Origin: Pseudomonadota bacterium
GTDB lineage: Bacteria; Pseudomonadota; Alphaproteobacteria; Rickettsiales; SXRF01
Assembly (NCBI GenBank): GCA_038043465.1
Contig: JBBTBX010000001.1
Location: 30,686 to 94,685 of the forward strand
Direction of reading: 5' to 3'
Length of the DNA stretch: 64,000 bases
Of the stretch, positions 22,642 through 46,559 are shown in pieces. The position numbers were made by a program, and so were the translations under genes. The notes under the pieces are model-generated. The model was given only the letters and a program-made list of their open reading frames with translations, was not told the origin of the DNA and did no database searches. Every line of letters starts with the position of its first letter. Position 1 is the stretch's first letter.

Positions 22642-22806
22642 ATGAGAAGTCGAGAAGGCGAGAATAAATGGCTTAAGGCAGAGATTGAAAAGGGCATGGA
22701 TGATATTGCTGCTGGTAGGGTGCTTGATGGGAAAGTGGTTTTAGCAGAGTTAAAAACAAAAGCCCTACTTTCTTGCGGGAGAGGCAAAAAAGGGAGGATT
22801 ACTTGA
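22642..22806 (+). pseudogene. ParD-type antitoxin C-terminal remnant (no RHH N-terminus)
   Basis: MRSREGENKWLKAEIEKGMDDIAAGRVLDGKVVLAELKTKA parallels the C-terminal half of the parD product at 9789. No toxin follows. Confidence 0.3.
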
Positions 22807-23975
22807 CCACACAACTTCGTACAAAATTGGTTTCTGAATTTGTCTGCACTACGGACAAATGTCCGGACACGTGCTGCAAACACTGGTCGATGCAGATGGA
22901 CTTAGTGACCTATGAGAAATACAAAAAAGATGCGCCGGAGTTGCTTGATGCGGTTGAGGAAGATTATGACCAAACATTTATAATGAAGAAAGATACGCAA
23001 ACTGGTTATTGCGTGAAATTTGATGGTGGGAAATGTGGTGTCCATATTAAATATGGCGAGAAATTTTTAGGTGATGCTTGCTATTCCTATCCGCGCATTA
23101 CACGGGCTGCGGGTGAGATGAATATCATAACTGCTACTATGTCATGTCCGGAAATTGCGAGGATCGCGCTCTATGGCGAAAATCCATTTGCTATTGAAGA
23201 GGCGATTCCTTCGCGCGTGCCGCAGGAAATAAAAAATATTCTGGCAGATGGTTTATCGCGCGAAGATGCGCTTAATATCCATAAATTATTTATCGCTGCT
23301 ACGGAAGATGAGGCGGCAAGCGCGGAACAGATTTTTGCGCGTATCAGCAGCGCATCACGTTCGCTGACAAGGATGGAAAAAAAAGGTTGGCTGGGAGCTG
23401 CTTCAATGTATTTACGGTTGGCGGATAGTTCGCTGCCTGCGCCAGAGAAAAATATAAATGATCCATTTAATTTACTGCACTCATTATGTGGTTTGGTTGT
23501 TGCTTCCAAAAAAAATATACCACCGCGTTTGCAACAAACTATTTCAGAGATGGAAAAAGCTTTGCGCGTAAAACTGGATTGGGAAAATGTTTTGATTCAC
23601 ACCAGTGATGAAAGTTTGGATGCTTATAATAATTTGCAGGCATTATGGAAAAATGAAATGCAGGAAACTTATACGCCACTTTTAAAGCGGTGGCTGGGGG
23701 CGCAAATTTCTGCGTCACTATATCCTTTTGCTGGTCTGGGAGGAAATTTACCGGAACGCATTACTATCATCGGAGTGCGGTTGGCAATTTTAAAGCTTGC
23801 ATTAATGTCAATATATAGTATCAATGATGGAAAGTTACATCAAGATGATGTGATTAGGGTGGTTCAGAGTCTGTCGCGCTTCTTAGAGCATCTGGCTGAC
23901 CCGAGCTTTTCTCTACGGATATATGAAGAGACCGGCTGGAATAAGGAAAACCGCCTGCTTGGTTTGCTTTTCTGA
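22803..23975 (+). CDS. fliB: Flagellin lysine-N-methylase (FliB family)
   Basis: FVCTTDKCPDTCCKHW and GYCVKFDGGKCGVH Cys clusters, as in FliB/YkgJ-type proteins; directly upstream of the flagellin. Start placed at TTG 22803, after AGGGAGGA. Confidence 0.7.
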   Translation: MTTQLRTKLVSEFVCTTDKCPDTCCKHWSMQMDLVTYEKYKKDAPELLDAVEEDYDQTFIMKKDTQTGYCVKFDGGKCGVHIKYGEKFLGDACYSYPRITRAAGEMNIITATMSCPEIARIALYGENPFAIEEAIPSRVPQEIKNILADGLSREDALNIHKLFIAATEDEAASAEQIFARISSASRSLTRMEKKGWLGAASMYLRLADSSLPAPEKNINDPFNLLHSLCGLVVASKKNIPPRLQQTISEMEKALRVKLDWENVLIHTSDESLDAYNNLQALWKNEMQETYTPLLKRWLGAQISASLYPFAGLGGNLPERITIIGVRLAILKLALMSIYSINDGKLHQDDVIRVVQSLSRFLEHLADPSFSLRIYEETGWNKENRLLGLLF

Positions 23976-24120
23976 TAAAAAAACAAAAAATATCTGCCTC
24001 GTTAACCTATTATTAATGATGTTTGTTGATAATGGGTTTATGTGTGGTCAGTTTGGCTGCATGGTTAACCGGAGCAATTAGCTCCTTTATAAACTTTAAC
24101 GTCCAAGTAGGAGAAAAATC

Positions 24121-27100
24121 ATGGCTAATTCAATTAATACCAATATTTCTGCGTATTTCGCGCAGGCAAATATTGGAGCAGCTTCAGCATCATCTTCATC
24201 TTCAGTATCGCGTCTTTCCAGCGGTAACCGTATCGTGAAAGCGTCTGACGACGTAGCTGCTCTTTCAACTGGTACATCACTCAAAACACAGGTATTGGCA
24301 CTTAGAACTGCTCTTACCAACGCTTCGCAAGGTACATCGCTGCTTCAGGTAGCTGACGGCGCGCTTTCGCAAGTAACAGAAATTCTTCAACGTCAGAAAG
24401 CTATTTCACTACAAGCTGGTTCCGGTTCATTAACCGATACTGACCGTGGTTATCTTGATCAGGAATTCCAGGCTCTCTCAACCGAAATAGATCGTCTGAC
24501 CGGAGCTACAAACTTCAACGGCGTGAAACTTCTGAACGGTTCTCTTTCAACTACTGCTGCTGTTGCTGAAGTTGAGACTGCTGCAACTAAAGGCTCTCTA
24601 AGTCTTAACTTCGGTGCTAGCAATATTCTGGTTGGTGAAGTTGTTACCATTAACGGTACTACTCTTACCGCTGTTGCTTCTGGCGCAACCGGCGCGCAGT
24701 TCAACCTTGGTGCTAACATCACGGAAACAGTTTCAAACCTTGCAGATCGTTTGAATACCCTTGCCGACAGCACTACCTATAACACTACTCTTGGTGAAGC
24801 TATTTATTCTGCTGCTGGCTCAACCCTTACTGCTACAGCTCGTGCTGGTGGTGCGTTAAGTAATGCTTTCCGTTTGGATAACACCCCTCCTGCTGCTATA
24901 ACCGCTATACCAATTGGTGATGTTGACACAACCAACGGTTCTGCGAGCGTTGTTGTTACTATGGCTAACTCATATGCTGTTGGACAACGGGTTATCATCA
25001 ACCTTGGTACTGATGCTGCTATCGGTGGTATTGCTCATACTGCTCTGCGTGGTGTTATTACCGCTGCAACCGGTGCTTCATTTACCTTCACTGCTCAGGC
25101 AACTGCAACTGCAACTGCTGCTAACGCTACTGCTGCAACTGCGATTCTTGATGCTGCTAACACTTTTAACGAAGCTACAGTTACTGGTGGAAGCCAAGCA
25201 AGTTATTTCAACCTGTTTGCAACAACTACTGGGTTTACCAGTGCTACCACTGTAATTTCTGCTGCAACTTCTACTGCGGCGTTGCCATTCCAGGATGGTA
25301 ATACCTTTACCGCTACAGTAAACGGTACATCTCATACACTTCATACTTTTGCAGCAAGTGATACGCTGAAAGGTTTGGTGGATGGTATTAATGCCAGCTC
25401 TCCAACAACTGGTTTTTCTGCTTCTTTAATTATGGATTCTAACAATCGTTACAATATCCGTATTAAAGCTGAAGGCAATACTGGCCCAATTTTAATTAAC
25501 GGTGGTACAAATTACTATGCGACAGGCGCGTCTACCAATCTGTTGACTGGTGATAACCTTTCCACACTTGATACAATTGGTAACTCTACCGCAGCCCAGT
25601 TCTCTGGTAAGAGCATTATCTCCAGCGGTTACACTGACCTGGTTGGTGCTGCTGGTGCAGTTACCATTACTGCTGCTACTCAGGCTGCAACTGTAATCGG
25701 TGCTACTGCTGCCGCTCCGTTCGTGGTTGGTGAGAATGTCAGTGTTACCATAAATGGTGAAAGCAAAATTCTGCATACATTTGTGGCTGCTGATACTCTG
25801 GCAACAGTTATAGCTAGCATCAACGCTAAAACTGCAGACACTGGCGTTTACGCTGCTGTATTATCGGATGCCGATGGTCTGGCTGCTTACAACATTAGGC
25901 TGTATACAACTGCACCTACTCCAGCAACTGATCAGTTCCTAGTAGAAGCTGGTATTGGGTCTTCTCTGGCTTCCAGCACTCTTACCACCTTAACTACTAC
26001 CAATGGTGGCTTGTCACGAGTTACTACAGCTACCATGCAAGGTGGTGTTGATGACGGTATTGGTAAAGGTAATACTAATGCTACCGGTTCGGTTGGTGAC
26101 TCTATCCTGCAGAGTCTTGGTACAACTAAAGCCAATGCTTCTTTATTGTTTACTGCAATCCCAACGGCGAATGATTCTATCACCGTAGGTGGTCAGTTAT
26201 TCTACTTTACCTCTAACACGACCGCAGCTCCTAATGAGATCCTGATTGGTTCTACTGTTCAGGAAACCATTAATAACACTGTATCTGCACTACATAATTA
26301 TGTAGAAAATGGTCATGCTATCGGTACTGCAGCTTATGAGCTTAACCAGATTGATATTTCAGCTACTGCAAATTCTTTGGTGTTTACCGCTAAAGCTATG
26401 GGTACTGTAAAAACTCTTACTGGTGGCACTTCTGCGATTGCAGAATCATCTACTAACATTGCGCTGGTAGGTGGCAACCTTAATAACGGTTCTACTAACT
26501 ATGGTGTGGACGTTACTGGTATAGCTAATTCTGCTTTTACTGGTTCTATAAGTGGATTTACTGCTACTTATACCGGCACAACTGATACTATTGACCTGTC
26601 AGTGAAAATTGGTGATTTCACTTACACTGCTCAGGATGTTGATGCTACTGTAACCAGCGATACCCGTATCCGTTTATATTCTGATACAGTTGCTGGTAAA
26701 AACGGTGGTTTCTTTGACATACAACTTAAAGCTAACCAGGTTAACTCGTTTACTAACCAGGCTGGTGCGGATGCGGTTGCGGCTCGCCTCGATGGTGCTT
26801 TCAGCAGCTTGAATTTCTTACAAAACCGTAATATTTCAAGCTATACTGGTTCTGGAAGTATCACTTCTGGTGGTTCTGTAATTGGTTCACTTCAAGGAAG
26901 TAAGGTAACTGCGCAACTGAAGGAGTTTGAAAATGTAAACCTGTCAGATGTAAAAGTTGTTGCTCCATCAGGAAGCAACACCGATGTCAGGATTACTCTT
27001 ACCATCAGCGGTGTTGATTACTCTACCGCTTCTGGTATTGGCAGCGAGCTTGGTGCTAACCAGACCTACAAGCTGGTAAGCTCTGAAGATCCTAATCAAT

Positions 27101-27603
27101 TTGTAAACTTTACCACTGGTAATACTACAATTGATATAGATTCTTCTGAGAAAGCCCTTGCTGTACAGGCTGCCCTCAAGACTGCGTTTGGTGCAACCGC
27201 CGGTTCATCTTCGCTGTCCTTCCAAGTTGGATCTTCTTCAAGTGATACTCTCGAAGTAAGTATCGGTAGTGCGCAGACTTCTTCACTGTATGCGGGTAAA
27301 ACGTTGAACGTATTGAGTCAGGAAGACGCTATTATAGCTGGCGACCAGCTTGATATAGCACTGGCAACAGTGACTTCACTACGTGCATCGGTTGGTGCGC
27401 TTCAGTCACGATTCAACTTTGCTGCAGCTAACATCCAGATTGCGGTTCAAAATCAGGATGCTGCTCGTGGTGAACTATTGGATACTGACGTTGCGACAGA
27501 ATCAACAGCGTTTGCTACTTCGCAGGTTAAGCTACAGGCTGGTATCTCAGTACTAGCTCAGGCTAACCAGCAGTTGCAGAACTTGTTGAAACTGATTCAG
27601 TAG
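24121..27603 (+). CDS. fliC: Flagellin, 1160 aa (giant)
   Basis: Canonical termini: MANSINTNISAYFAQ...GTSLLQVADGAL...LDQEFQAL and LRASVGALQSRFNFAAANIQI...ATSQVKLQAGISVLAQANQ. About 890 aa lie between them. Confidence 0.9.
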   Translation: MANSINTNISAYFAQANIGAASASSSSSVSRLSSGNRIVKASDDVAALSTGTSLKTQVLALRTALTNASQGTSLLQVADGALSQVTEILQRQKAISLQAGSGSLTDTDRGYLDQEFQALSTEIDRLTGATNFNGVKLLNGSLSTTAAVAEVETAATKGSLSLNFGASNILVGEVVTINGTTLTAVASGATGAQFNLGANITETVSNLADRLNTLADSTTYNTTLGEAIYSAAGSTLTATARAGGALSNAFRLDNTPPAAITAIPIGDVDTTNGSASVVVTMANSYAVGQRVIINLGTDAAIGGIAHTALRGVITAATGASFTFTAQATATATAANATAATAILDAANTFNEATVTGGSQASYFNLFATTTGFTSATTVISAATSTAALPFQDGNTFTATVNGTSHTLHTFAASDTLKGLVDGINASSPTTGFSASLIMDSNNRYNIRIKAEGNTGPILINGGTNYYATGASTNLLTGDNLSTLDTIGNSTAAQFSGKSIISSGYTDLVGAAGAVTITAATQAATVIGATAAAPFVVGENVSVTINGESKILHTFVAADTLATVIASINAKTADTGVYAAVLSDADGLAAYNIRLYTTAPTPATDQFLVEAGIGSSLASSTLTTLTTTNGGLSRVTTATMQGGVDDGIGKGNTNATGSVGDSILQSLGTTKANASLLFTAIPTANDSITVGGQLFYFTSNTTAAPNEILIGSTVQETINNTVSALHNYVENGHAIGTAAYELNQIDISATANSLVFTAKAMGTVKTLTGGTSAIAESSTNIALVGGNLNNGSTNYGVDVTGIANSAFTGSISGFTATYTGTTDTIDLSVKIGDFTYTAQDVDATVTSDTRIRLYSDTVAGKNGGFFDIQLKANQVNSFTNQAGADAVAARLDGAFSSLNFLQNRNISSYTGSGSITSGGSVIGSLQGSKVTAQLKEFENVNLSDVKVVAPSGSNTDVRITLTISGVDYSTASGIGSELGANQTYKLVSSEDPNQFVNFTTGNTTIDIDSSEKALAVQAALKTAFGATAGSSSLSFQVGSSSSDTLEVSIGSAQTSSLYAGKTLNVLSQEDAIIAGDQLDIALATVTSLRASVGALQSRFNFAAANIQIAVQNQDAARGELLDTDVATESTAFATSQVKLQAGISVLAQANQQLQNLLKLIQ

Positions 27604-27663: not shown

Positions 27664-28026
27664 ATGAACAATTTAGGAATAACATCACCGCCCATTGTAA
27701 TAAAACCTGTAGTTTCTATGCCAAGTCCGGCGCCCGTGGCTAGTAAGTCCGAGGTGCCTTTTGTGTCAATAGGATCTGGTAGTACCGGCTTTGACGAGCA
27801 GGTTGCACAGCAACAAAGGTTCCAGGCGGTTCAGCGCATTTCTCAGAAAATGACTGATCCATATGTGGTAAGTGACAGAACTTTCACTATTTTTAAAGAC
27901 GCTACCGGACAATACATTACCAGATTCACCAGTTTGCGTGATGGTAAGGTAACTTATATTCCTGAGCCGAATTTGTTCAGGATGGGTGGCGAAAGTGAAA
28001 AAGTATCGTTTAATTTGAAGGTTTGA
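27664..28026 (+). CDS. flaG: Flagellar protein FlaG
   Basis: FTIFKDATGQYITRFTSLRDGKVTYIPEP is the FlaG signature region. Confidence 0.8.
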   Translation: MNNLGITSPPIVIKPVVSMPSPAPVASKSEVPFVSIGSGSTGFDEQVAQQQRFQAVQRISQKMTDPYVVSDRTFTIFKDATGQYITRFTSLRDGKVTYIPEPNLFRMGGESEKVSFNLKV

Positions 28027-28209: not shown

Positions 28210-30024
28210 ATGGTGAGTCAAATACAGATCGGTAATTTTTTCAAGTTTGGCGGAAAAACTGTATCGAATGGTGTTGGCGGATCTGGTATTGATACAGAGG
28301 CTCTGATCAAAGGGCTCACCGAGGCCAAGTCGATTCCTGCGACGCAATTACAGGATAAAATTGATGTAAATGCCAGTAAGGCTACGGCACTGGGCGAATT
28401 TAAAAGCCTGCTTGGTAAACTTAAGGATTCGGTGGCGATTTTGCGTAACCCTCCTGGGGTCGGTAATGCGGCGGACAATGCTTTTAAATATAGAACCGCT
28501 GTTATCAGCAGTAATACTGAAGTGTCAGGTTTGGAATATGTGGTGGCTACGGCTTCACCTGGTACAGCTTTGCAGTCTTACACAGTAAGCGAAATTACCA
28601 GCATTGCCAAAGCAAGAAAACAATCTACCGGTAACATAAATATTGCTACAGCTAATGATGCTGCGGTTTCAGCCGCTCCGGCGGCAGGGCAATTTAAAGC
28701 CGGTACTTTTACTCTTAAAGGCGAGAGCATAACACTGAATGATGGCGAAAGTCTGAACTCTGTGGCTGCCAAGTTTAATTCCATTTCCGATAAAACCGGA
28801 ATATCAGCCAGTATAATTAAAGTTGGAACTGGTGTTTACCAGCTTTCATTTGCTTCTACCAAGACTGGAACTGATGTGGATTTTGATTTTAACAACGTAA
28901 GTCCTGCCGGTACTCTGGTTGATGCTACCGGTGTTTTTACGCAGGTTACTATTTCAGATAAACAGCAAGCGTCTAATGCTGTTTTTAAATTCAATGGTGT
29001 GTCCATAACCAGGCAGGGCAATACTATAAGCGATTTGGTTGACGGACTTTCTCTGACCATCAAAAAAGATATGGTGGCTGCTCCTCTTACTGAAGTTGGG
29101 GTTTCCATTGAGGCGGATCAGAATATAGGGAAGAACAGCATCATCAATTTTGTTAATCTGTATAATGAACTGAAAGTTTTTGCTGCCAAGCAATCAGAGC
29201 TTGATGATAATGGTCTTTATAAAGATACGGCAGTGCTTAGTGATAGTGCGCTACTGCGTAATACTATGAGTTCTGTTGGGGGGATATTGTCGTCGATAGT
29301 TTCTGGTCTTGGCTTAAATGCTCCAAGCAGGCTTGCCGATGTGGGCATTACTTTTATTGATCAGGAAGCAACCACTGATTCACCTTCTGTACGTAATTTG
29401 ATGAGTGTTGATGATACAAAGCTCAGCACTGCCATAGCCAATGATCCGGATGCTGTACGCAAGATATTTGAATTTGATTTCGTGACCGATAATACTTCTC
29501 TACGTATTTTTTCGCGCACCAATGCGTTGAAGGCAACAGATTTTGACCTTACTATCACGCCCAGCACTTCCACTTACAAAGCAACTTATGATGATGGTTC
29601 GGGACCTGAAATCGTGGATCTGGATGCTATTGAGATTAAAAACGCATCTACCGGAGTTGTAACCGGTTACACTTTGAAAGGGAAGGTGGGTACGGCGTTT
29701 GAAGGGTTGGTTATGGTATATGCCAGCACTGCGGACGGCACTGCAAGTGTTAATGCTACGCAGGGTATCGCCGATAAAATTTTTAACGTTTCTGATGCTG
29801 TTCTAAAGAGCAATACTGGTACGCTTGCGGTTGAGCTTAACGCACTCAAAGATTCCGATACGCGTTTGAAGGAAAATATTGATAGAATAAACGCGCAGGT
29901 TGAAGTTTTTCGCCAACAATTGCTTGATAAATTTGCGCGTTTGGAACAAGCTATTTCCAACGTCAATACACTGCTCTCTAGTCTGCAGGCTAATGATGAT
30001 GCGCGAAATGGTATAAATAGCTAG
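28210..30024 (+). CDS. fliD: Flagellar filament cap protein FliD
   Basis: N-terminus GIDTEALIKGLTEAKSIPATQLQDKID and C-terminal coiled coil INAQVEVFRQQLLDKFARLEQAIS. Confidence 0.9.
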   Translation: MVSQIQIGNFFKFGGKTVSNGVGGSGIDTEALIKGLTEAKSIPATQLQDKIDVNASKATALGEFKSLLGKLKDSVAILRNPPGVGNAADNAFKYRTAVISSNTEVSGLEYVVATASPGTALQSYTVSEITSIAKARKQSTGNINIATANDAAVSAAPAAGQFKAGTFTLKGESITLNDGESLNSVAAKFNSISDKTGISASIIKVGTGVYQLSFASTKTGTDVDFDFNNVSPAGTLVDATGVFTQVTISDKQQASNAVFKFNGVSITRQGNTISDLVDGLSLTIKKDMVAAPLTEVGVSIEADQNIGKNSIINFVNLYNELKVFAAKQSELDDNGLYKDTAVLSDSALLRNTMSSVGGILSSIVSGLGLNAPSRLADVGITFIDQEATTDSPSVRNLMSVDDTKLSTAIANDPDAVRKIFEFDFVTDNTSLRIFSRTNALKATDFDLTITPSTSTYKATYDDGSGPEIVDLDAIEIKNASTGVVTGYTLKGKVGTAFEGLVMVYASTADGTASVNATQGIADKIFNVSDAVLKSNTGTLAVELNALKDSDTRLKENIDRINAQVEVFRQQLLDKFARLEQAISNVNTLLSSLQANDDARNGINS

Positions 30025-30054: not shown

Positions 30055-30534
30055 ATGGTTGAAAAACAAAAATACCAGGCATATGCCGCTGCCACGCAGA
30101 CCGTAGCTCCTGTTCGCCAGATTATATTGCTGTATGATGGAATTATCCGCCTTGTGCAGCAGGCAAAAGAAGCCATCAACGAAAAACGGATTGAAGACCG
30201 TTATAACTTGCTTATAAAAGCTTCCGAGCTGGTTGGTGGCTTGCAAGGTTGCCTCGATTTTGATAATGGCGGGGAAATCGCGAAAATCCTCTATAGCTAT
30301 TATTCATCAATTGATACGCGTTTATTTGCGATTCACCGCACTAATAGCATAGAGGAATGTGAATCGGTTATCGCCGATTTAAAACAGATGCGCAGTGCAT
30401 GGAATGATATTGATCAGGATAGTTCTCGCGCAGGGGCACAGGGAGGAAATGTTTCCGAGTTTCCTGTTGCTTCCAATTCCGGCAATGGTTCGATTATTCC
30501 GCCTTCTGCTGAGGGGCTGACGCTGTCAGCTTAG
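30055..30534 (+). CDS. fliS: Flagellar export chaperone FliS
   Basis: QIILLYDGIIRLVQQAKEAI...LIKASELVGGLQGCLDF fits the FliS four-helix pattern. Confidence 0.9.
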   Translation: MVEKQKYQAYAAATQTVAPVRQIILLYDGIIRLVQQAKEAINEKRIEDRYNLLIKASELVGGLQGCLDFDNGGEIAKILYSYYSSIDTRLFAIHRTNSIEECESVIADLKQMRSAWNDIDQDSSRAGAQGGNVSEFPVASNSGNGSIIPPSAEGLTLSA

Positions 30535-30701: not shown

Positions 30702-32537
30702 ATGCCGGCTTTACAATTCTCGTTAGCAACGCTAAGCGGATTAATTAATGGAAATCAGGCGGATAGCTCGGTTAAGGGTGGCGATGCATCAAGTAAAAAA
30801 TCTGGTGCTGACCAGTTTTCCTCGTTGCTTGACGTGGTAGGAAATACTGGTGATTCCGGTAATCAGGCGGGCTTTGGCAATAAAAAAGATGAAAAAGACC
30901 CAGCGGCTGTGGAAGTTAATGCCGCCCAGCCTTTCCGCGATCCTTTGGACAAAACCATCCAGAAAGTGTTGAGAAATAAAATAGAAAATAAAGAAACTAA
31001 TAAAAGTGAGGATAAAAATTCTGAGACTTCTACGCGTCCAGTTAAAAATACAAAAAATTATGATCAGAATAATGCGCCGGTAAGAGATAAAGTTGAGAGC
31101 AAAACTGTGGGTGATACAGAAGCTCCGGCCGATGAATTGACCTCTGAGGAATTGAAGGAAAAAATTGCCAGACATGCGGATAGCTTGAGTGATTTGCTGA
31201 ATATTATTGCACAGCTTCTGGCGGGTGCTGGTGTTGGTGGGCAGGTTCTGACGGTTAATGTGAATTCGCAGGTGAAAATAGATGTGGTTAGTTCTGCGGA
31301 TAATCTGGCGATTACTGACGCACAGAAAAATGCAGGATTGCCGGAGATATTTGCAGATTTGAAAAATACCCTTGCCCAGCTTCAGCAATTTTTGCAGGCG
31401 GCAAATTCTGAAGGAGCAGCGCAGGGTGCAGATGGCAATTTGTTGTTGAGTGATGAGCAGAATGCGGCACTTAATGCAATTAATGATGCTCTGCAAAATG
31501 ATTTGAACGCACTCAAGAATTTATTGCCACAAGGGCTTGGCGGAGATGATAAGAAAGCTGCGTCTGCTCTGGCACTTGATGCATTACATAATCAGGGTGT
31601 TGATGATGATAAATTATTTGCGATGGCAGAGGATGTTAAAAAATTGCTGGAAGATGATATCGCGCTGATTAAAGAAGCATTGCAGAAATTTCGCAGTGAC
31701 AGGGCAGGGGAATATCAGCAAGCTGATGTTGGTTCAAAGCTGCCGGTGAAGCCGCTTATCACTATCGCAGCAAATAATAATTCCTTGCTGCCTGAAGCTA
31801 ATAACAAACCGGATGCAATTGTTTCTGCGCCAATTGTGCAGCAGGCGGCGGGTGTTGCCAGCGAACAGCCAGTTACTTCGCAACAATCCATGCAGCAGCA
31901 AAATAATTCTCTTCTGCCGGTGGCTTCTGCGGTGCAGTCTGCTACAAGCTCAGACAGCAATAGTAATTTTTCGGGTAATTCCGGACAGAATAATAATGCC
32001 GGGCAGCAATTTTCACTGGCGGGAGCTGCGCCATCTTCTGCGCGGGCGAATGTTCCAGCAGGAGCTTCACAATTTTCGAGTATGCTTAACCGTGCCGAGC
32101 AAGTTCCGGTTACTGATCAGGTGGTGTTCCATGTAAAAACTGCCATCGGTAGTGGCAATAGCAAAATAACTATCCAGCTAAATCCGGAAGAATTGGGGAA
32201 ACTGGATATTACGCTCGATGTAGATTCCAAGGGTAAAACCGGAGTGACGATTACTGCGGATAATAAACAGGCTCTGGATTTGCTACAGCGTGATTCCAGC
32301 GGTTTGCAGAAAGCTCTTTCGGACGCCGGACTTAAAACTGATGCGGGAAGCTTGAGTTTTAATCTGCGTGGCGGTGAAAAAGAAGGGCAGGGGCAGAATC
32401 AATATCAGGCTACCAGCCAGTATCAAAAATCGCAGCCGGAAGAATTATTGCCGGAAGAAGTGAATATGGCATCGCTGGTGGCAGTGACGCGTAGCTATAC
32501 TGTTAATTTGCCAGATGGTCTGGATATTAAAATATAG
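30702..32537 (+). CDS. fliK: Flagellar hook-length control protein FliK
   Basis: Low-complexity N-terminal and central regions. C-terminal Flg_hook-type domain ITIQLNPEELGKLDITLDVD...GVTITADNKQALDLLQRD. Confidence 0.85.
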   Translation: MPALQFSLATLSGLINGNQADSSVKGGDASSKKSGADQFSSLLDVVGNTGDSGNQAGFGNKKDEKDPAAVEVNAAQPFRDPLDKTIQKVLRNKIENKETNKSEDKNSETSTRPVKNTKNYDQNNAPVRDKVESKTVGDTEAPADELTSEELKEKIARHADSLSDLLNIIAQLLAGAGVGGQVLTVNVNSQVKIDVVSSADNLAITDAQKNAGLPEIFADLKNTLAQLQQFLQAANSEGAAQGADGNLLLSDEQNAALNAINDALQNDLNALKNLLPQGLGGDDKKAASALALDALHNQGVDDDKLFAMAEDVKKLLEDDIALIKEALQKFRSDRAGEYQQADVGSKLPVKPLITIAANNNSLLPEANNKPDAIVSAPIVQQAAGVASEQPVTSQQSMQQQNNSLLPVASAVQSATSSDSNSNFSGNSGQNNNAGQQFSLAGAAPSSARANVPAGASQFSSMLNRAEQVPVTDQVVFHVKTAIGSGNSKITIQLNPEELGKLDITLDVDSKGKTGVTITADNKQALDLLQRDSSGLQKALSDAGLKTDAGSLSFNLRGGEKEGQGQNQYQATSQYQKSQPEELLPEEVNMASLVAVTRSYTVNLPDGLDIKI

Positions 32538-33385: not shown

Positions 33386-33418
33386 GATCCTGTGCAGCCT
33401 TACGGCTCACAGGATGAC
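33386..33418. repeat. GATCC-hairpin-GGATGAC half element (flgD-flgE spacer)
   Basis: gatcctgtg cagccttacggct cacaggatgac; same architecture as 43061-43099 and 53311-53337. Confidence 0.8.
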
Positions 33419-33433
33419 AGAAGGGGAGAAGTT

Positions 33434-36400
33434 ATGAGTTTATATGGTGCGTTATATTCTGGTGTATCTGGTCTTAAAGGTCAGAGTAACAAGATTGGTA
33501 TCATTTCCGACAATATTTCCAACGTGAACACGGTTGGTTATAAAGGAAACCGTGGCGGGTTTGAAAGTCTCGTGACTTCTTCTGCCAGCGAATCACAATT
33601 CTCACCTGGCGGTGTTATCGGCGCGAACCAACAGCTAGTGAACAAGCAAGGGCTGTTGCAATCTACCGATTCGTCAACTGACATTGCGGTTTCCGGCGAT
33701 GGTTTCTTTGTGGTAAACCAGCAATCTGACGGGGCAGGGCAGGTATATTACACCCGCGCCGGTTCGTTCACACAGGATGCGACTGGTAACTTCCGTAATG
33801 CCGCCGGATTTTTCCTACAGGCATGGCCACTGGATCGTGAAGGACGCTTGCCGGGGGAAACCGGAAATTTAAATACTAACTCCAGCGCGAACCTGACCAG
33901 CCTTACTACGGTCAACGTGACTAACCTCACCGGTGTTGCTGCTGCTACTTCGACAGTGTCAATCGGTGCTAACCTGAACTCGGCACAGACGGCATATCCT
34001 GGGGCTTCCGGCACTGCTAAACCAGATCCATTCCATACACAGAATAATGGAATTGCTGCGAAGGATATTTTGATTCCTGGTGGCGTGAACAGCCTTACCA
34101 GAGGTGATCGTATTACAGTTTCTACCGGTCAGGGACTTAGTTACACTTACCGTTACAGCGGTTTTACTTTCGGACGTGATGTTACTAATGCCGCCTCGGT
34201 TGGTGATAATGATCGGGCGGTTATTTCATCGCCGAATACTATAACTTCGGCTGCAGTGGCTATGGCAAATAACCCGGTTACTACCGGCGCGGCGGCTAGT
34301 ACTACCGTAACCATTACCAGTACGGCGCATGGTCTTACCACTGGGGATGCAGTAACTCTCGCTGGTCTTGCTACAACTGATGGCATTCCGGCTGGTGAAT
34401 TAAATGCTACCCATATTATTACGGTAACTGGTGCTAATACATTTACTATAACTACTACTACCGGTGCAACTGCTGGTGGTGTTACCGGTGGTGGTGCTGC
34501 TGGATTTAAAACTAATTTACCATTTAAAACTACCAATGCCAGTGCCGTGGTTACAGTAAGGCAGGTTGGGCACGGATTGGTTAATAATGAAGTGGTAACT
34601 TTGAGCGGTAACACCGGAGCTGTTGGCGGTATTCCGGCAGGTGACCTGAACGGTTCGTTTCTAGTCACGTACATTGATGATGACCATTATAGCATTACGG
34701 CAGCATCCACCGCTACCTCGACTGCCGGTGGCGGAGCTGGAACTGTGGTTGCCACCACCAGATTGTTTGGTGGCGCGATTATGGACGCGAATAATGCTAC
34801 AACTCGTTTCCTCGCTGATACTGGAACAAGTTCATTCAGCACATCGGCTCTTAAATTCACTATTACAACTACGGCAACAGGTACTGTGAATTTTAGCTAT
34901 ACTTCAGCGTCACCAAATGCACAGCTTGGACAGTTCAATACACTGAATAATCTTGCTGATGCCATAAATGCGGTAACAGGTCTTTCTGCCCGTGTCTCTG
35001 GTGGCAGGCTTTATGTTGGGGCGACCGATGCCAATGCCGCCATTACTTTTGCCAATGGCTCAAGTGTTGGTACTGCTGGTCCTCCGGTGCAGTGGGGTAT
35101 TGACTGGATAAGAGAACTTGGTTTATCTAATCTTGGTACTGGCTCTGATCGTTTTGCTTCTCTGGAAGGACTTGCGAATCTAGTCAATAATTCTTCTGGT
35201 TTGACCGCGACTATTGAGAGCGCGTTGTCATCAGCCAGCGTCAAAATCAACGTTAATAACCCGCTTGATACGATTACGTTCTCAGATTTTCCGGTGTTAC
35301 CTAACGTTACCCTTGGTGCTACTCCGTTTACTACAACGGCAGGCAGCGGAGTTGTAACCGTCACTTTACCGGCTGCTCCATCGCCATCATACGTTACCGG
35401 TGATGTGGTTGATATGGGAACTCTTGCCGGTGGTCCTTATGACGGAATTGCTGCTGCGAATCTTTCCGGACTGTTTGAGATTACTGTAGTGAATGCTACG
35501 ACCTTTACCATTGTTGCTAAGAATAATGCGGAAGCAACTGCTGGTGCAACAACTGGTCCTGCTGGTATTTCCATGGTGCAACCACAGAACTACGGAAGTC
35601 TTGTGGCAGAACTTGGTCTGGTTGACTCATTAAACGGTACTGCCTATTCAGTTGCCGGACCGCAGACGACAGGAGCAATTGGACCGGCTTATGACCCAGG
35701 TGATGCTGCCAAAAATATTGCTGGTGGTGCTATCACCGCACAATTCAGTCGCCCGATACGAGTCTATGACTCACTGGGAACGGGGCATGATTTGAGTATG
35801 AGTTTTATCAAAACTGATATTAATACCTGGGCTGTGGAAGTTTATGCTGCCAATGCAGGTGAGGTGACTTCGCCACTACCTAGCGGTCAGATTGTTACGG
35901 GCGCTATTACCTTCAATGGTGACGGTAGTTTGCAGAGTGTTGACAGTGCACTTATTAATCCGGTTGATATAACCTGGACCAATGGTTCGGTGTCGAGCAG
36001 TATTACTTTTAATTGGGGAACTTCCGGTTCACCGTTTGGCACTCCCAACGCTTCTTCAATCGGTAAGACCGATGGGCTTAGTCAGTTTAATAGTGCTTAT
36101 CGTGTGAATTTTGTGAATCAGAACGGTGCGCCAGTGGGTGACTTGACCAGCGTGGCTATTACCGAAGAAGGTTTTGTGGTTGCCAGTTACAGCAACGGGC
36201 AGACGCAGAATCTGTTTAAAATTCCGCTTGCTGATTTTGCTAACCCTAACCAACTCCAGACTTCATCGGGTAACGTGTTTTTACAATCCGCGCAATCAGG
36301 TGAGGTTAATTTGCGGCAATCGGGAAGCAGTGGTGTTGGTAAGATTGCTTCATCATCGCTTGAACAATCCAACGTGGAACTCGCGGATCAGTTGACTGAT

Positions 36401-43422: not shown

Positions 43423-45129
43423 ATGAATACCACCGGCACTGCCCGCCTTGAAAAAATACTGAATAGTTTGCGCCCTGTATGGCTTTCAGTGTGCGTAAAT
43501 AGTTTTTTCATCAACCTGCTAATCTTGCCTGTTTCTTTATATTCCTTACAGGTATTGGATCGGGTACTGAGTACCGGCAGCTTAGCAACATTATTATGGC
43601 TTACAGTAATCATGCTGGCTATGTTTGCGGCGGCAGGGTTATTGCAGACACTGCGTAGCATGGTGTTACAGAAAGCCGCTGACTGGTTGCATGATTCCAT
43701 CATCGAAGTAGTACTCCCTCTGGTTCTGGCGCAAACGGCAGCAGGTGGCAGAGGAGCGCAACATTTGCGTGATGCATCGACTATCAAACAATTCATAGGT
43801 GGCAATGGGCTGGTCACTCTAATGGATACGCCGTGGTCAATCTTATATATAGCCGCCTTATTCATCGTGCATTGGTCACTCGGTTTGCTGGTAGTGGCAG
43901 GTGCAGCATTGCTTTTGCTGATGGCATGGCTGAATGAAACATCAATGCGCCGTCCCAGCCAGGAAGCGGGTGCAAGGCAATTACGCGCCATGCAGGAGCT
44001 GGAACTGGCAACACGCAACGCCGAAGTAACGCAGGCGATGGGCATGGTTACAGCACTTTCTGCCCGCTGGAAGGCAATGCAGAAAACCACAGGCGAATTA
44101 CAGTTGACAGCCGGAAACCGCGCTGCAGTTATTCAGGGTGGAACTAAATTCCTGCGACTTTCCCTGCAGATATTTGTCACTTGCGCTTCCGCATGGCTGG
44201 CAATTTATGGCCATGTAACCACTGGAGCTATTATTGCTGCTTCAATCCTTGCCAGCCGCGCCCTCGCTCCGTTTGAGGCAGCCATTGCCAGCTGGAAAAG
44301 TTTTACCGAAACCCGCACGTCTTACTCACGGCTTAAAAAAGCTTTCACTGATGAACTGCAGAACGAAGAATCAATGAAATTGCCTGCTGCTGTTGGCGCA
44401 ATTGCTGTGGAAAATGTAACTTACAGCACAGAAGGTAGAGAAGAGCCGATACTTAAAAACATAAATTTTGGTCTGAATGCCGGAGAAATTTTAGGTATTG
44501 TTGGTCCAAGTGGTTCCGGAAAATCCACTCTGGCGCGGGTAATAATGGGCGTATGGCAGGCGGAAAAAGGGGTGGTGCGATTGGATGGTGCAGATATACG
44601 CCAAATAGCGCGCACAGAGTTTGGCAAATCAGTTGGATATCTACCGCAAGATGTTGAATTATTCAGTGGAACAATAAAAGAGAATATATCACGCTTTAAC
44701 TCTGATGCTACGCCGGAAGCAGTGGTGCAGGCTGCCAATATGGCTAGTGCGCATGAGTTGATTCTGCGCCTGCCTAAAGGCTATGATACGGAAATTGGTC
44801 AAGGTGGCGCGGTACTATCTGCCGGGCAACGCCAGAGAATTGGACTTGCCAGAGCGTTTTATGGCGATCCTAAGCTACTCATGCTTGACGAGCCGGATGC
44901 CAGCCTTGATGACGTTGGACAACAGGCATTGATTGCGGCACTCTATCTTGCCAAACAACGAAAAATAACCACGCTGCTTATAACTCACCGTAATAGCCTT
45001 CTGGAGCATGTTGACAAGCTTCTGGTGCTGCGCGATGGAAGGCTGGAAACATTCGGAGCAATTTCCGAGGTAATGGCATTGTATAATAAGGCAAGAGCGC
45101 AAACAATCCCGGTTAAAGGCAATCCATGA
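43423..45129 (+). CDS. Type I secretion ABC permease/ATPase (PrtD/HasD-like, no C39 domain)
   Basis: 568 aa; N-terminal 6-TM domain, Walker A GPSGSGKST, signature LSAGQRQRI, Walker B LLMLDEP. Confidence 0.9.
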   Translation: MNTTGTARLEKILNSLRPVWLSVCVNSFFINLLILPVSLYSLQVLDRVLSTGSLATLLWLTVIMLAMFAAAGLLQTLRSMVLQKAADWLHDSIIEVVLPLVLAQTAAGGRGAQHLRDASTIKQFIGGNGLVTLMDTPWSILYIAALFIVHWSLGLLVVAGAALLLLMAWLNETSMRRPSQEAGARQLRAMQELELATRNAEVTQAMGMVTALSARWKAMQKTTGELQLTAGNRAAVIQGGTKFLRLSLQIFVTCASAWLAIYGHVTTGAIIAASILASRALAPFEAAIASWKSFTETRTSYSRLKKAFTDELQNEESMKLPAAVGAIAVENVTYSTEGREEPILKNINFGLNAGEILGIVGPSGSGKSTLARVIMGVWQAEKGVVRLDGADIRQIARTEFGKSVGYLPQDVELFSGTIKENISRFNSDATPEAVVQAANMASAHELILRLPKGYDTEIGQGGAVLSAGQRQRIGLARAFYGDPKLLMLDEPDASLDDVGQQALIAALYLAKQRKITTLLITHRNSLLEHVDKLLVLRDGRLETFGAISEVMALYNKARAQTIPVKGNP

Positions 45130-46559
45130 ATATAAGCATCCCAAGAATCAGAACTTTGTTGGAAAAACTGGAAGGACATCCGCGCCTTGCCCGAGCAGTG
45201 GAGGCAATCGACAATTTTGTACAACTACTCAGTAATAAAGATTATAAGGGAAATAATTCTGCCATTGCCAGCGCGCATGCCCCTATGCGTGCCACTGCGC
45301 TAGTAATAACTGCTATTACCTTTATCACCATAGTTTTTGGTATGATAGTTCCTATTGAAAGTGCCGCCATTGCGCATGGCAACGTAGCTGTAATAACCAA
45401 ACGCAAAACCGTGCAGCATCTGGAAGGTGGAATTATCAAAAATATCCTGGTGGAGGAGGGGCAGCTGGTTAAGAAAGATCAGCCACTCGTAGAAATCAGC
45501 GATGTTGCTCCCAAAGCCAACCGTGAAATAGTCCAGAGTGAATTATGGGCGATGCGTGCGTCAGAAACGCGTATACAGGCATTGCAAAGCAGTACGGCAG
45601 AATTAAAGTTTCCAGATGAATTAGAAGAAGCGGCAAAAAATCAGGAATCCCTGCAAAAAGCAATGCGCTCGCAAGCAGAATTATTTACCACCCAGAATGA
45701 CAGCCATCTTGGCAAGCTTGATTCATTGTGGCAGCGCATATCAGGAATAAAAGAAGAAATAATCGGGCTTACAGCACAAAAGAAAAGCGCGCATGGTCAG
45801 CTTGCCTTGATTATCGAGGAAACAAATTCAGTAAAAGAATTATATAAGGACGGCATGGCAACCAAGCCACGCCTGCTTGAGCTGCAACGTAAAGCTGAGG
45901 AATTAAAAGGCAATATCGGTCAATACGGTGCGCAGATTGCCAAGGCTGAACAAAGCATAACCGAAAGCCAGATGGATGTAATCAACCTGGAAAATGATTT
46001 TGCCGGTAAACTTGCCGAAGAGCTGCGTGATGTCCGCTCTAAAATTAATGATTATGATGAAAAACTGCGCGCTGCCACTGACGTTATGACGCGCACGGTA
46101 ATCATCTCCCCGTCAGAAGGTATCGTAACCGGTCTTAAACACCACACTATAGGCGGTGTGATAGCTGCCGGAGCACCGATAATGGACATTACTCCGCAAG
46201 GTGACAAGCTGGTAGCGGAAGTGCATGTACAGCCTACTGATATTGACGTTGTTGAAGCTGGAATGCAGGCGCGCATCGTGCTTTCGGCGTATAAATCACG
46301 CAGGATGCCAATTCTTACCGGAAAAGTAACGCAGGTATCGGCTGACGCTTTCAATGAACAACAAGGTATACAAACCGTATCATATTACACCGCAAGGGTT
46401 GAGGTAGATGCGAAAGAATTAGCTGCCCTCGATAGTGCCGTAAAACTGTCACCGGGAATGCCTCTGGAAGTATATATTAATACCGGTTCGCGTTCATTCT
46501 TTTCTTACATGCTGGCACCGATTACCGACAGTTTGAACAAGGCCTTCAAGGAAGATTAA
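45126..46559 (+). CDS. Type I secretion membrane fusion protein (HlyD family)
   Basis: 4-nt overlap with the ABC gene; single TM, long coiled coil, and C-terminus Y.ARV......L.PGMP.EV.I.TG.RS...Y. Confidence 0.9.
   Translation: MNISIPRIRTLLEKLEGHPRLARAVEAIDNFVQLLSNKDYKGNNSAIASAHAPMRATALVITAITFITIVFGMIVPIESAAIAHGNVAVITKRKTVQHLEGGIIKNILVEEGQLVKKDQPLVEISDVAPKANREIVQSELWAMRASETRIQALQSSTAELKFPDELEEAAKNQESLQKAMRSQAELFTTQNDSHLGKLDSLWQRISGIKEEIIGLTAQKKSAHGQLALIIEETNSVKELYKDGMATKPRLLELQRKAEELKGNIGQYGAQIAKAEQSITESQMDVINLENDFAGKLAEELRDVRSKINDYDEKLRAATDVMTRTVIISPSEGIVTGLKHHTIGGVIAAGAPIMDITPQGDKLVAEVHVQPTDIDVVEAGMQARIVLSAYKSRRMPILTGKVTQVSADAFNEQQGIQTVSYYTARVEVDAKELAALDSAVKLSPGMPLEVYINTGSRSFFSYMLAPITDSLNKAFKED

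Follow-up and report, generated by a model that had tools for sequence, protein, structure and literature searches.

The 64,000-nucleotide stretch of DNA analysed here (the window) contains a late-flagellar gene block in the order fliB-fliC-(FlaG-like)-fliD-fliS-fliK-flgD-flgE. Within this block we focused on fliC, which encodes a giant flagellin of 1160 amino acids (aa), and on fliB, which encodes a flagellin lysine-N-methylase homologue directly upstream of it. The two ends of FliC are those of a canonical flagellin, and between them lies an outer region built from small modules, several of which are present twice. The features of the two genes are listed below with the evidence for each, which came from Pfam and NCBIfam profiles, hhalign profile comparisons, hidden Markov models (HMMs) of the modules and AlphaFold2 (AF2) structure models.

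22803..23975, + strand: fliB, flagellin lysine-N-methylase homologue (NCBIfam NF038110 Lys_methyl_FliB; CX4CX3CC motif)
24121..27603, + strand: fliC, giant flagellin, 1160 aa, 117 kDa, isoelectric point (pI) 4.5
24121..24540, + strand: N-terminal D0/D1 helices of FliC, aa 1-140 (Pfam Flagellin_N; AF2 helices at aa 2-129)
24583..24885, + strand: module A1, aa 155-255, first copy of pair 1, strand-strand-helix-strand-strand (hhalign vs A2)
24886..25155, + strand: module S, aa 256-345, small all-beta (AF2)
25282..25515, + strand: module B1, aa 388-465, Flagellin_IN, first copy of pair 2 (PF07196, 23.6 bits)
25714..25956, + strand: module B2, aa 532-612, Flagellin_IN, second copy of pair 2 (PF07196, 25.3 bits)
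26116..26400, + strand: module A2, aa 666-760, second copy of pair 1 (hhalign vs A1; family module HMMs)
26560..26850, + strand: module C1, aa 814-910, four strands then a long helix, first copy of pair 3 (AF2; hhalign)
26932..27225, + strand: module C2, aa 938-1035, second copy of pair 3 (position-restricted profile hhalign vs C1)
27226..27603, + strand: C-terminal D1/D0 region, aa 1036-1160, plus the stop codon (Pfam Flagellin_C; AF2 helix at aa 1067-1158)

The fliC open reading frame (ORF) begins with ATG, runs as a single unbroken frame and has an AGGAG Shine-Dalgarno sequence a few bases upstream. Pfam profiles placed Flagellin_N (PF00669) at aa 5-141 (E 9.3e-31, 107.2 bits vs a cutoff of 26.6) and Flagellin_C (PF00700) at aa 1077-1159 (E 8.5e-16, 58.5 bits vs a cutoff of 23), with Flagellin_IN matches in mid-protein, and NCBIfam flagellin models scored up to 164 bits. 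These results confirm the textbook N- and C-terminal flagellin helices reported in a preliminary description of this DNA, and the D0/D1 core of the filament is built from aa 1-140 and ~1036-1160 of FliC. FliC contains no Cys and no Trp, and counts for its central 890 aa (T 139, A 133, G 91, S 87, N 66) agree with the earlier account of a Cys-free insert of that size rich in these five residues; the pI of this outer region is 4.4, and Ser and Thr together make up 25% of it. ORF length, Pfam termini and flagellar gene context all fit the claim of a giant 1160-aa flagellin, and judged from its sequence FliC is a genuine giant flagellin by the definition of Thomson et al. 2018 (>1000 aa; PMC6248924).

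We conclude, with a probability of about 0.8, that this giant flagellin is the flagellar filament subunit of an uncultured Rickettsiales-like alphaproteobacterium. A different role is conceivable, in which FliC is a minor or specialised flagellin, an FlgL junction protein or an exported adhesin, while a short flagellin encoded elsewhere forms most of the filament. Many bacteria have several flagellins, the window holds no flgK, flgL or second flagellin (with only that part of the genome visible), and the FlgL model TIGR02550 gave a weak N-terminal match on FliC of 59.5 bits. That score is, however, far under the model's cutoff of 127 bits and under the flagellin scores, Flagellin_C is present in FliC, and the gene occupies the canonical fliC-flaG-fliD-fliS position, which is kept in seven loci. 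There is also a precedent in Bermanella, where a giant flagellin is the sole filament protein found (PMC6248924). We regard a minor or non-filament role for FliC as unlikely.

The preliminary description had read three pairs of duplicated segments in the outer region, and our comparisons recovered homology in all three. The copies of pair 2 (B1/B2, first placed at aa ~388-460 and ~532-610) are homologous at the pairwise level, with a Smith-Waterman z of 19 against shuffles and an hhalign probability of 99.7 (E 4.7e-26). Scanned alone, B1 and B2 match PF07196 at 23.6 and 25.3 bits (gathering threshold 22.7), and the Pfam scan of the central region that had been proposed likewise found Flagellin_IN at both. 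Pair 1 (A1/A2, first placed at aa ~158-240 and ~674-760) was marginal pairwise (z = 2.5), and family profiles established it with an hhalign probability of 97.2 (E 4e-11) over 85 columns. Pair 3 (C1/C2, first placed at aa ~822-900 and ~954-1025) gave no pairwise signal (z = -0.4) and a weak one with 37-sequence profiles (probability 54.5), while position-restricted profiles of ~240 members gave a probability of 95.0 (E 3.7e-8) over 70 columns. In 77 family proteins the C2 profile also finds the position of C1 (i-E < 1e-3), and C1 and C2 share the predicted four-strands-then-long-helix pattern. The homology of pair 3 thus stands, but the duplication is not visible by eye as had been claimed and needs deep profiles to be seen.

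Self-BLASTP of FliC returned no off-diagonal matches because the repeats, whose copies are ~20-40% identical in amino-acid sequence, are too old for BLAST. Iterated module profiles were circular, in that the A2 and C2 profiles absorbed A1 and C1, and their probabilities of at least 99 were left unused; for A1/A2 and C1/C2 they were replaced by position-restricted, non-circular profiles of ~240 family members each. By these profile comparisons, the A, B and C modules are each present twice in FliC through ancient internal duplication. A comparison of A with B modules (probability 81-89 over ~40 columns) does no more than hint at the A modules being diverged Flagellin_IN (IN)-like units. The centre of FliC is a confidently folded chain of ~7 small modules, A1-S-B1-B2-A2-C1-C2, with short linkers between them.

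The full-length AF2 model of FliC has a mean predicted local distance difference test score (pLDDT) of 74 and a predicted template modelling score (pTM) of 0.43. Every significant Foldseek match of this model in the PDB is a flagellar filament, the best being the 792-aa Geovibrio thiophilus flagellin (9au6, E 1e-16). Modelled alone from a 52-sequence alignment, the outer region (aa 146-1035) reached a pLDDT of 84.9 and a pTM of 0.81, and this model points to a multi-domain body with a defined form, not to a loose string of beads. Among solved structures, it best matches FliD D2-D3 domains, with Helicobacter pylori FliD at the top (6iwy, E 1.9e-4, probability 0.98) and the FliD proteins of Salmonella, E. 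coli, Pseudomonas, Campylobacter and Serratia at probabilities of 0.8-1.0; the chains 5h5v, 5fhy and 6sih fall at 0.93-1.0, the output not giving the module behind each match. The G. thiophilus structure 9au6 is absent from the top 50 Foldseek matches of the outer region alone. The structure prediction and Foldseek comparison that the preliminary description had called for thus returned a confident, FliD D2-D3-like outer region, and with Flagellin_IN at the B modules and FliD D2-D3 domains as the best structural matches, the surface was assembled from existing flagellar-protein domains. Weak Pfam matches to Lum_binding, DUF4989 and Chorion_S16 (E 0.016-0.28) were set aside as noise.

These searches also bear on whether the outer region is enzymatic or ligand-binding, as in flagellinolysins, rather than a structural or antigenic coat. 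Enzymatic inserts in flagellins exist (PMC7643111), and the fold of module S probably recurs in baseplate and tail proteins of phages, and some of these bind surfaces. In FliC, however, we detected no enzyme family in the outer region (Pfam, E <= 1), no match to it among PDB sequences (0 at E <= 1) and no enzyme fold among its Foldseek PDB matches, of which the significant ones are FliD domains only. The central region has 0 Cys, only 6 His and no metal-site motif, and an enzymatic or ligand-binding outer region is in our view very unlikely.

Searched exhaustively against 1.84 billion representatives, the outer region returned only 196 proteins at E <= 1e-3, 65 of them at <= 1e-30, and among the matches listed, lengths and match positions fit flagellins of 640-1725 aa. 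The closest loci are in metagenome bins labelled Rickettsiales bacterium, Pseudomonadota or Alphaproteobacteria, and the GC content is ~44%; plasmid sequences gave no match in a megablast search. Module HMMs revealed a constant family scaffold, A1 ... A2-W-C1-V-C2, with A1 found in every family member examined, and a variable cassette between A1 and A2 that holds 1 to at least 6 B (Flagellin_IN) modules and 0-2 S modules. The copy number of B and S accounts for family lengths from ~900 to ~1680 aa.

Flagellins in this clade are routinely 900-1725 aa long, the 1160-aa FliC being a mid-sized member, and this length series among relatives makes giant size the norm in the clade. The length distribution, which the preliminary description had listed among its checks, runs with the number of IN modules. 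That description had also held flagellins of this size to be rare and mostly from marine gammaproteobacteria. FliC does belong to a giant class above 1000 aa, but giants are known from alpha-, gamma- and delta/epsilon-proteobacteria, Aquificae, Planctomycetes, Firmicutes and other phyla (PMC6248924), so the rarity was overstated and a mainly marine gammaproteobacterial origin is too narrow a view. Close relatives of FliC proved to be routinely of this size, as had been considered beforehand, but their outer domains are not ones already characterised. Four further loci, from freshwater Comamonadaceae, Limnohabitans and Burkholderiales bins (L021, L025, L027 and L029), carry giant flagellins with tblastn spans of ~3.0-3.4 kb that share only the core with FliC and have no fliB nearby; they represent another uncharacterised giant-flagellin group.

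Orthologues of 1160-1175 aa, with 51-93% identity to FliC and an identical order of modules, are present in over 20 independent assemblies drawn from NCBI, ENA, JGI and Logan, and fliC itself contains no DNA repeat longer than ~32 nt, those present being Ala/Thr codon runs. Repeats in a metagenome-type assembly are a known failure mode, but these orthologues, the lack of long DNA repeats, the low identity between repeat copies and the single uninterrupted frame with both flagellin termini effectively refute an artefact of assembly or gene calling (such as repeats collapsed or joined into a chimera, or two genes fused), the doubt that the preliminary description had itself attached to the central repeats.

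The mechanical ORF of fliB starts at TTG 22773, and TTG 22803, behind a GGGAGG Shine-Dalgarno sequence, is the likelier start. FliB matches NF038110 at 138.6 bits (cutoff 85), with ORF aa 20-374 covering positions 4-366 of 373. Its N-terminus, C-TTDK-C-PDT-CC, carries the CX4CX3CC motif at residues 25-35 of the 400-aa ORF, and in Salmonella FliB this motif binds an essential [4Fe-4S] cluster (PMC8598068). By family score and motif, the upstream gene is a FliB-type [4Fe-4S] lysine methylase homologue, which bears out the FliB-like Cys-cluster gene first described at 22803-23975, start included. We found fliB directly upstream of fliC in 7/7 clade loci (L001-L007); no unrelated giant-flagellin locus among those retrieved has it there. 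Gene identity and this conserved adjacency make lysine methylation of FliC by the FliB homologue plausible. Salmonella FliB modifies as many as 16-18 surface lysines in each subunit by methylation, which increases hydrophobicity and adhesion (PMC7181671); here, FliB would methylate exposed FliC lysines in the cytoplasm, before export, and the methylated surface would be more hydrophobic and favour adhesion.

To describe how the surface diverges, we compared the window with L002, the closest locus for the flanking genes, using Nei-Gojobori estimates of synonymous (dS) and nonsynonymous (dN) divergence. Protein identity is 82% for FliC, 90.5% for FliB and 94-100% for the neighbours, and the divergence of FliC is concentrated in aa 361-800. 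In the fliC outer region dS is 0.90, saturated in B1, B2 and segment W, compared with 0.07 in the fliC core, 0.071 in a DUF2671 gene downstream and 0.18-0.40 in the other flanking genes except orf120. With dN/dS at 0.16 in the outer region and dS itself raised, positive selection was rejected as the source of the surface divergence. High dS under purifying selection instead argues that the central cassette was replaced by recombination between diverged alleles, and the surface cassette thus appears to be exchanged in this way. A high-dS central region under purifying selection is a familiar pattern of enterobacterial H-antigen genes. Like H-antigen alleles, the cassette would move from lineage to lineage through homologous recombination, with the conserved ends as anchors, and the pressure for such swapping would likely come from phages, grazers or hosts. 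The product of orf120, the short gene that follows fliC, is 100% identical to its L002 copy, and its dS of 0.013, far below that of its neighbours, is a sign that this segment may recently have been co-transferred or have gone through a sweep.

Downstream in the same block, we detected a second oversized flagellar protein, the hook protein FlgE.

33392..36493, + strand: flgE, giant hook protein, 1033 aa (NCBIfam FlgE models, E up to 6e-94)

At 1033 aa, FlgE compares with ~400 aa for most of the NCBIfam FlgE models that it matched, and its giant size is kept in four other loci (L002, L003, L005 and L007). The FlgE insert carries Pfam E1_FCCH (PF16190, 37.7 bits vs a cutoff of 29.5), and module S of FliC aligned with the insert at three sites, aa 301-362, 381-447 and 646-716 (hhalign probability 63-78), one of these copies being the one that scores above the E1_FCCH cutoff. 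Module S itself (aa 256-345) has no Pfam match, PF16190 included, at E <= 5, and the outer-region model gave weak Foldseek matches to UBA6 at probabilities of 0.35-0.47. A small beta module is thus probably common to FliC and FlgE. Against viral structures, Foldseek matched short domains of phage proteins, all-beta and ~100 residues long, at 33-38% identity and a root-mean-square deviation of 1.4-3.1, the matched proteins being, among others, uncharacterised ones from Rhodobacter phage RcTitan, baseplate J-like proteins and one major tail protein. The likely source of these matches is module S, the output giving no query coordinates, and the models suggest that one domain may be common to phage virion, hook and filament proteins. 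Sharing of a module by a giant hook and a giant filament suggests joint evolution of the two structures.

A bolder proposal, which we offer tentatively and regard as possible rather than probable, is that of a coordinated giant flagellum. Hook and filament would both be decorated and share an E1_FCCH-like, phage-type beta-barrel, and a swapped, FliB-methylated module array would make the flagellum of basal aquatic Rickettsiales more than a propeller, a variable organelle for adhesion or for contact with hosts. At the filament tip, this array would expand, contract and swap between lineages. Genes for flagella are reported as frequent in basal, aquatic Rickettsiales, and flagella in that lineage are seen as a means of horizontal transmission and of targeting hosts (Castelli et al. 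2024, PMC10847448). If true, a coordinated giant flagellum would bear on the origin of host association in Rickettsiales.

Several points weigh against the filament subunit and the methylated, exchangeable surface that we propose for it. The organism is known solely from metagenome bins and FliC from genes alone, and on FliC the NCBIfam flagellin equivalog models all stay below their curated cutoffs, the insert being foreign to those models. The full-length pTM of 0.43 means that the placement of the outer block on the core is not defined by the model. Lysines are sparse in the outer region (19/890, 2.1%) and few are conserved (K758 in 96%, K829 in 91%, K1020 in 87%), so methylation may alter the surface less than in Salmonella, the only organism in which FliB activity has been demonstrated (PMC8598068, PMC7181671). 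The recombination inference, finally, rests mainly on a single close pair, the window and L002.

Other genes of the block and its surroundings are as follows.

22642-22806, + strand: 54-aa ORF between apaG and fliB, contains WLKAEIEKGMDDIAAGRVLDGKVV (~90 nt conserved in L005)
27664..28026, + strand: orf120, 120 aa, between fliC and fliD in the FlaG position (conserved in L001-L008)
28210..30024, + strand: fliD, filament cap, 604 aa (Pfam FliD_N, FliD_C and Flagellin_IN)
30055..30534, + strand: fliS, flagellin export chaperone (Pfam FliS, E 2.9e-25)
30702-32537, + strand: fliK, 611 aa
36814-37152, + strand: DUF2671 (PF10877) gene, directly after flgE (position kept in L002, L003 and L005-L007)
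39625-40458, - strand: type IV pilin-like protein with an N_methyl motif
41588-42991, + strand: GGDEF-EAL protein
43423-46559, + strand: ABC/HlyD type I secretion pair

Synteny of the late-flagellar block is kept in five other loci (L002, L003 and L005-L007). FliD of this genome has a Flagellin_IN motif at aa 169-218, and module B2 shows weak similarity to this FliD (hhalign probability 24.7). FliD (604 aa) and FliK (611 aa) are both rather long, and FliK is the least conserved flagellar gene in the clade, with 46-53% identity in L005-L007. The orf120 product has no match in Pfam or NCBIfam, and we take it to be FlaG-like from its position and a C-terminal motif rather than from a detected match. 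The DUF2671 family is, we assume, typical of Rickettsiales, and the 54-aa ORF upstream of fliB presumably resembles the C-terminal part of a ParD-type antitoxin.

The fliC leader (23976-24120) is unusually conserved, with 74% column identity over 8 loci. It contains a sigma-28-like -10 element, GTTGATAA, at 24026-24033, two predicted hairpins at ~24043-24064 and 24071-24085 (GGAGC-AATTA-GCTCC) and a few compensatory changes, and its ribosome-binding site has an invariant GTAGGAGAA. The leader may be a site of post-transcriptional control.

In the assembled flagellum, the outer modules of FliC would coat the filament and give it a thickness of ~30 nm, compared with 24 nm for the Salmonella filament, with a surface that is acidic and rich in Thr, Ala and Ser. 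The FliC family does not overturn current understanding of flagellins. It does offer a natural series, 1 to at least 6 IN modules on a constant scaffold, for the effects of outer mass, and this series could address how filament diameter, stiffness, motility and adhesion depend on outer-domain mass. The structural space of flagellin outer domains is large and for the most part uncharted, and Fields et al. 2024 (PMC11532411) predicted 682 clusters in it, few of them solved. The locus also extends the pairing of FliB with flagellin to an alphaproteobacterial lineage.

Giant size and internal duplication are already known, and this flagellin family is new within that class; in open-access text, we found no paper on the family, its FliB linkage or the giant hook. 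Thomson et al. 2018 counted 92 UniProt Flagellin_N proteins above 1000 aa and described growth by internal duplication and insertion, and the 1020-aa Bermanella marisrubri and 1190-aa Oleibacter marinus flagellins form filaments of at least 30 nm (PMC6248924). FliC resembles these Oceanospirillales giants in exceeding 1000 aa, in its canonical D0/D1 ends, in a centre grown by duplication and inserts, and in belonging to a length series among relatives. Their thick filaments (at least 30 nm) are the phenotype expected here, where FliC is known from genes alone. In contrast to those marine gammaproteobacteria, the hosts here are alphaproteobacterial, Rickettsiales-like bins. The architecture also appears to set FliC apart, with a Flagellin_IN/FliD-like A-B(n)-A-C-C array in place of the tandem DE regions of the Oceanospirillales proteins, and a FliB gene and a giant hook accompany FliC.

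The 792-aa G. thiophilus flagellin forms a 24 nm filament, and its D4 domain is related to FliD D2, D5 being a duplicate of D4 (Fields et al. 2024, PMC11532411). Like FliC, it has multi-domain outer layers derived from recruited and duplicated flagellar domains, and an acidic surface (outer pI 4.4 in FliC). It also has immunoglobulin-like D2/D3 domains, none of which we identified in FliC, and FliC is ~370 aa longer. The FliD D2-D3 and PF07196 domains are themselves the closest counterpart of the outer region, as its best structural matches and as the family whose threshold B1 and B2 pass, but here the IN modules sit inside a flagellin, in a copy number of 1 to at least 6. In Salmonella enterica, as here, a fliB homologue with the CX4CX3CC motif lies beside a flagellin gene (FliB-FliC/FljB; PMC7181671, PMC8598068). 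FliB has been described from the Enterobacteriaceae, and the present host lies far outside that family; the putative substrate of its FliB is 2.3 times longer than that of Salmonella and lower in lysine density.

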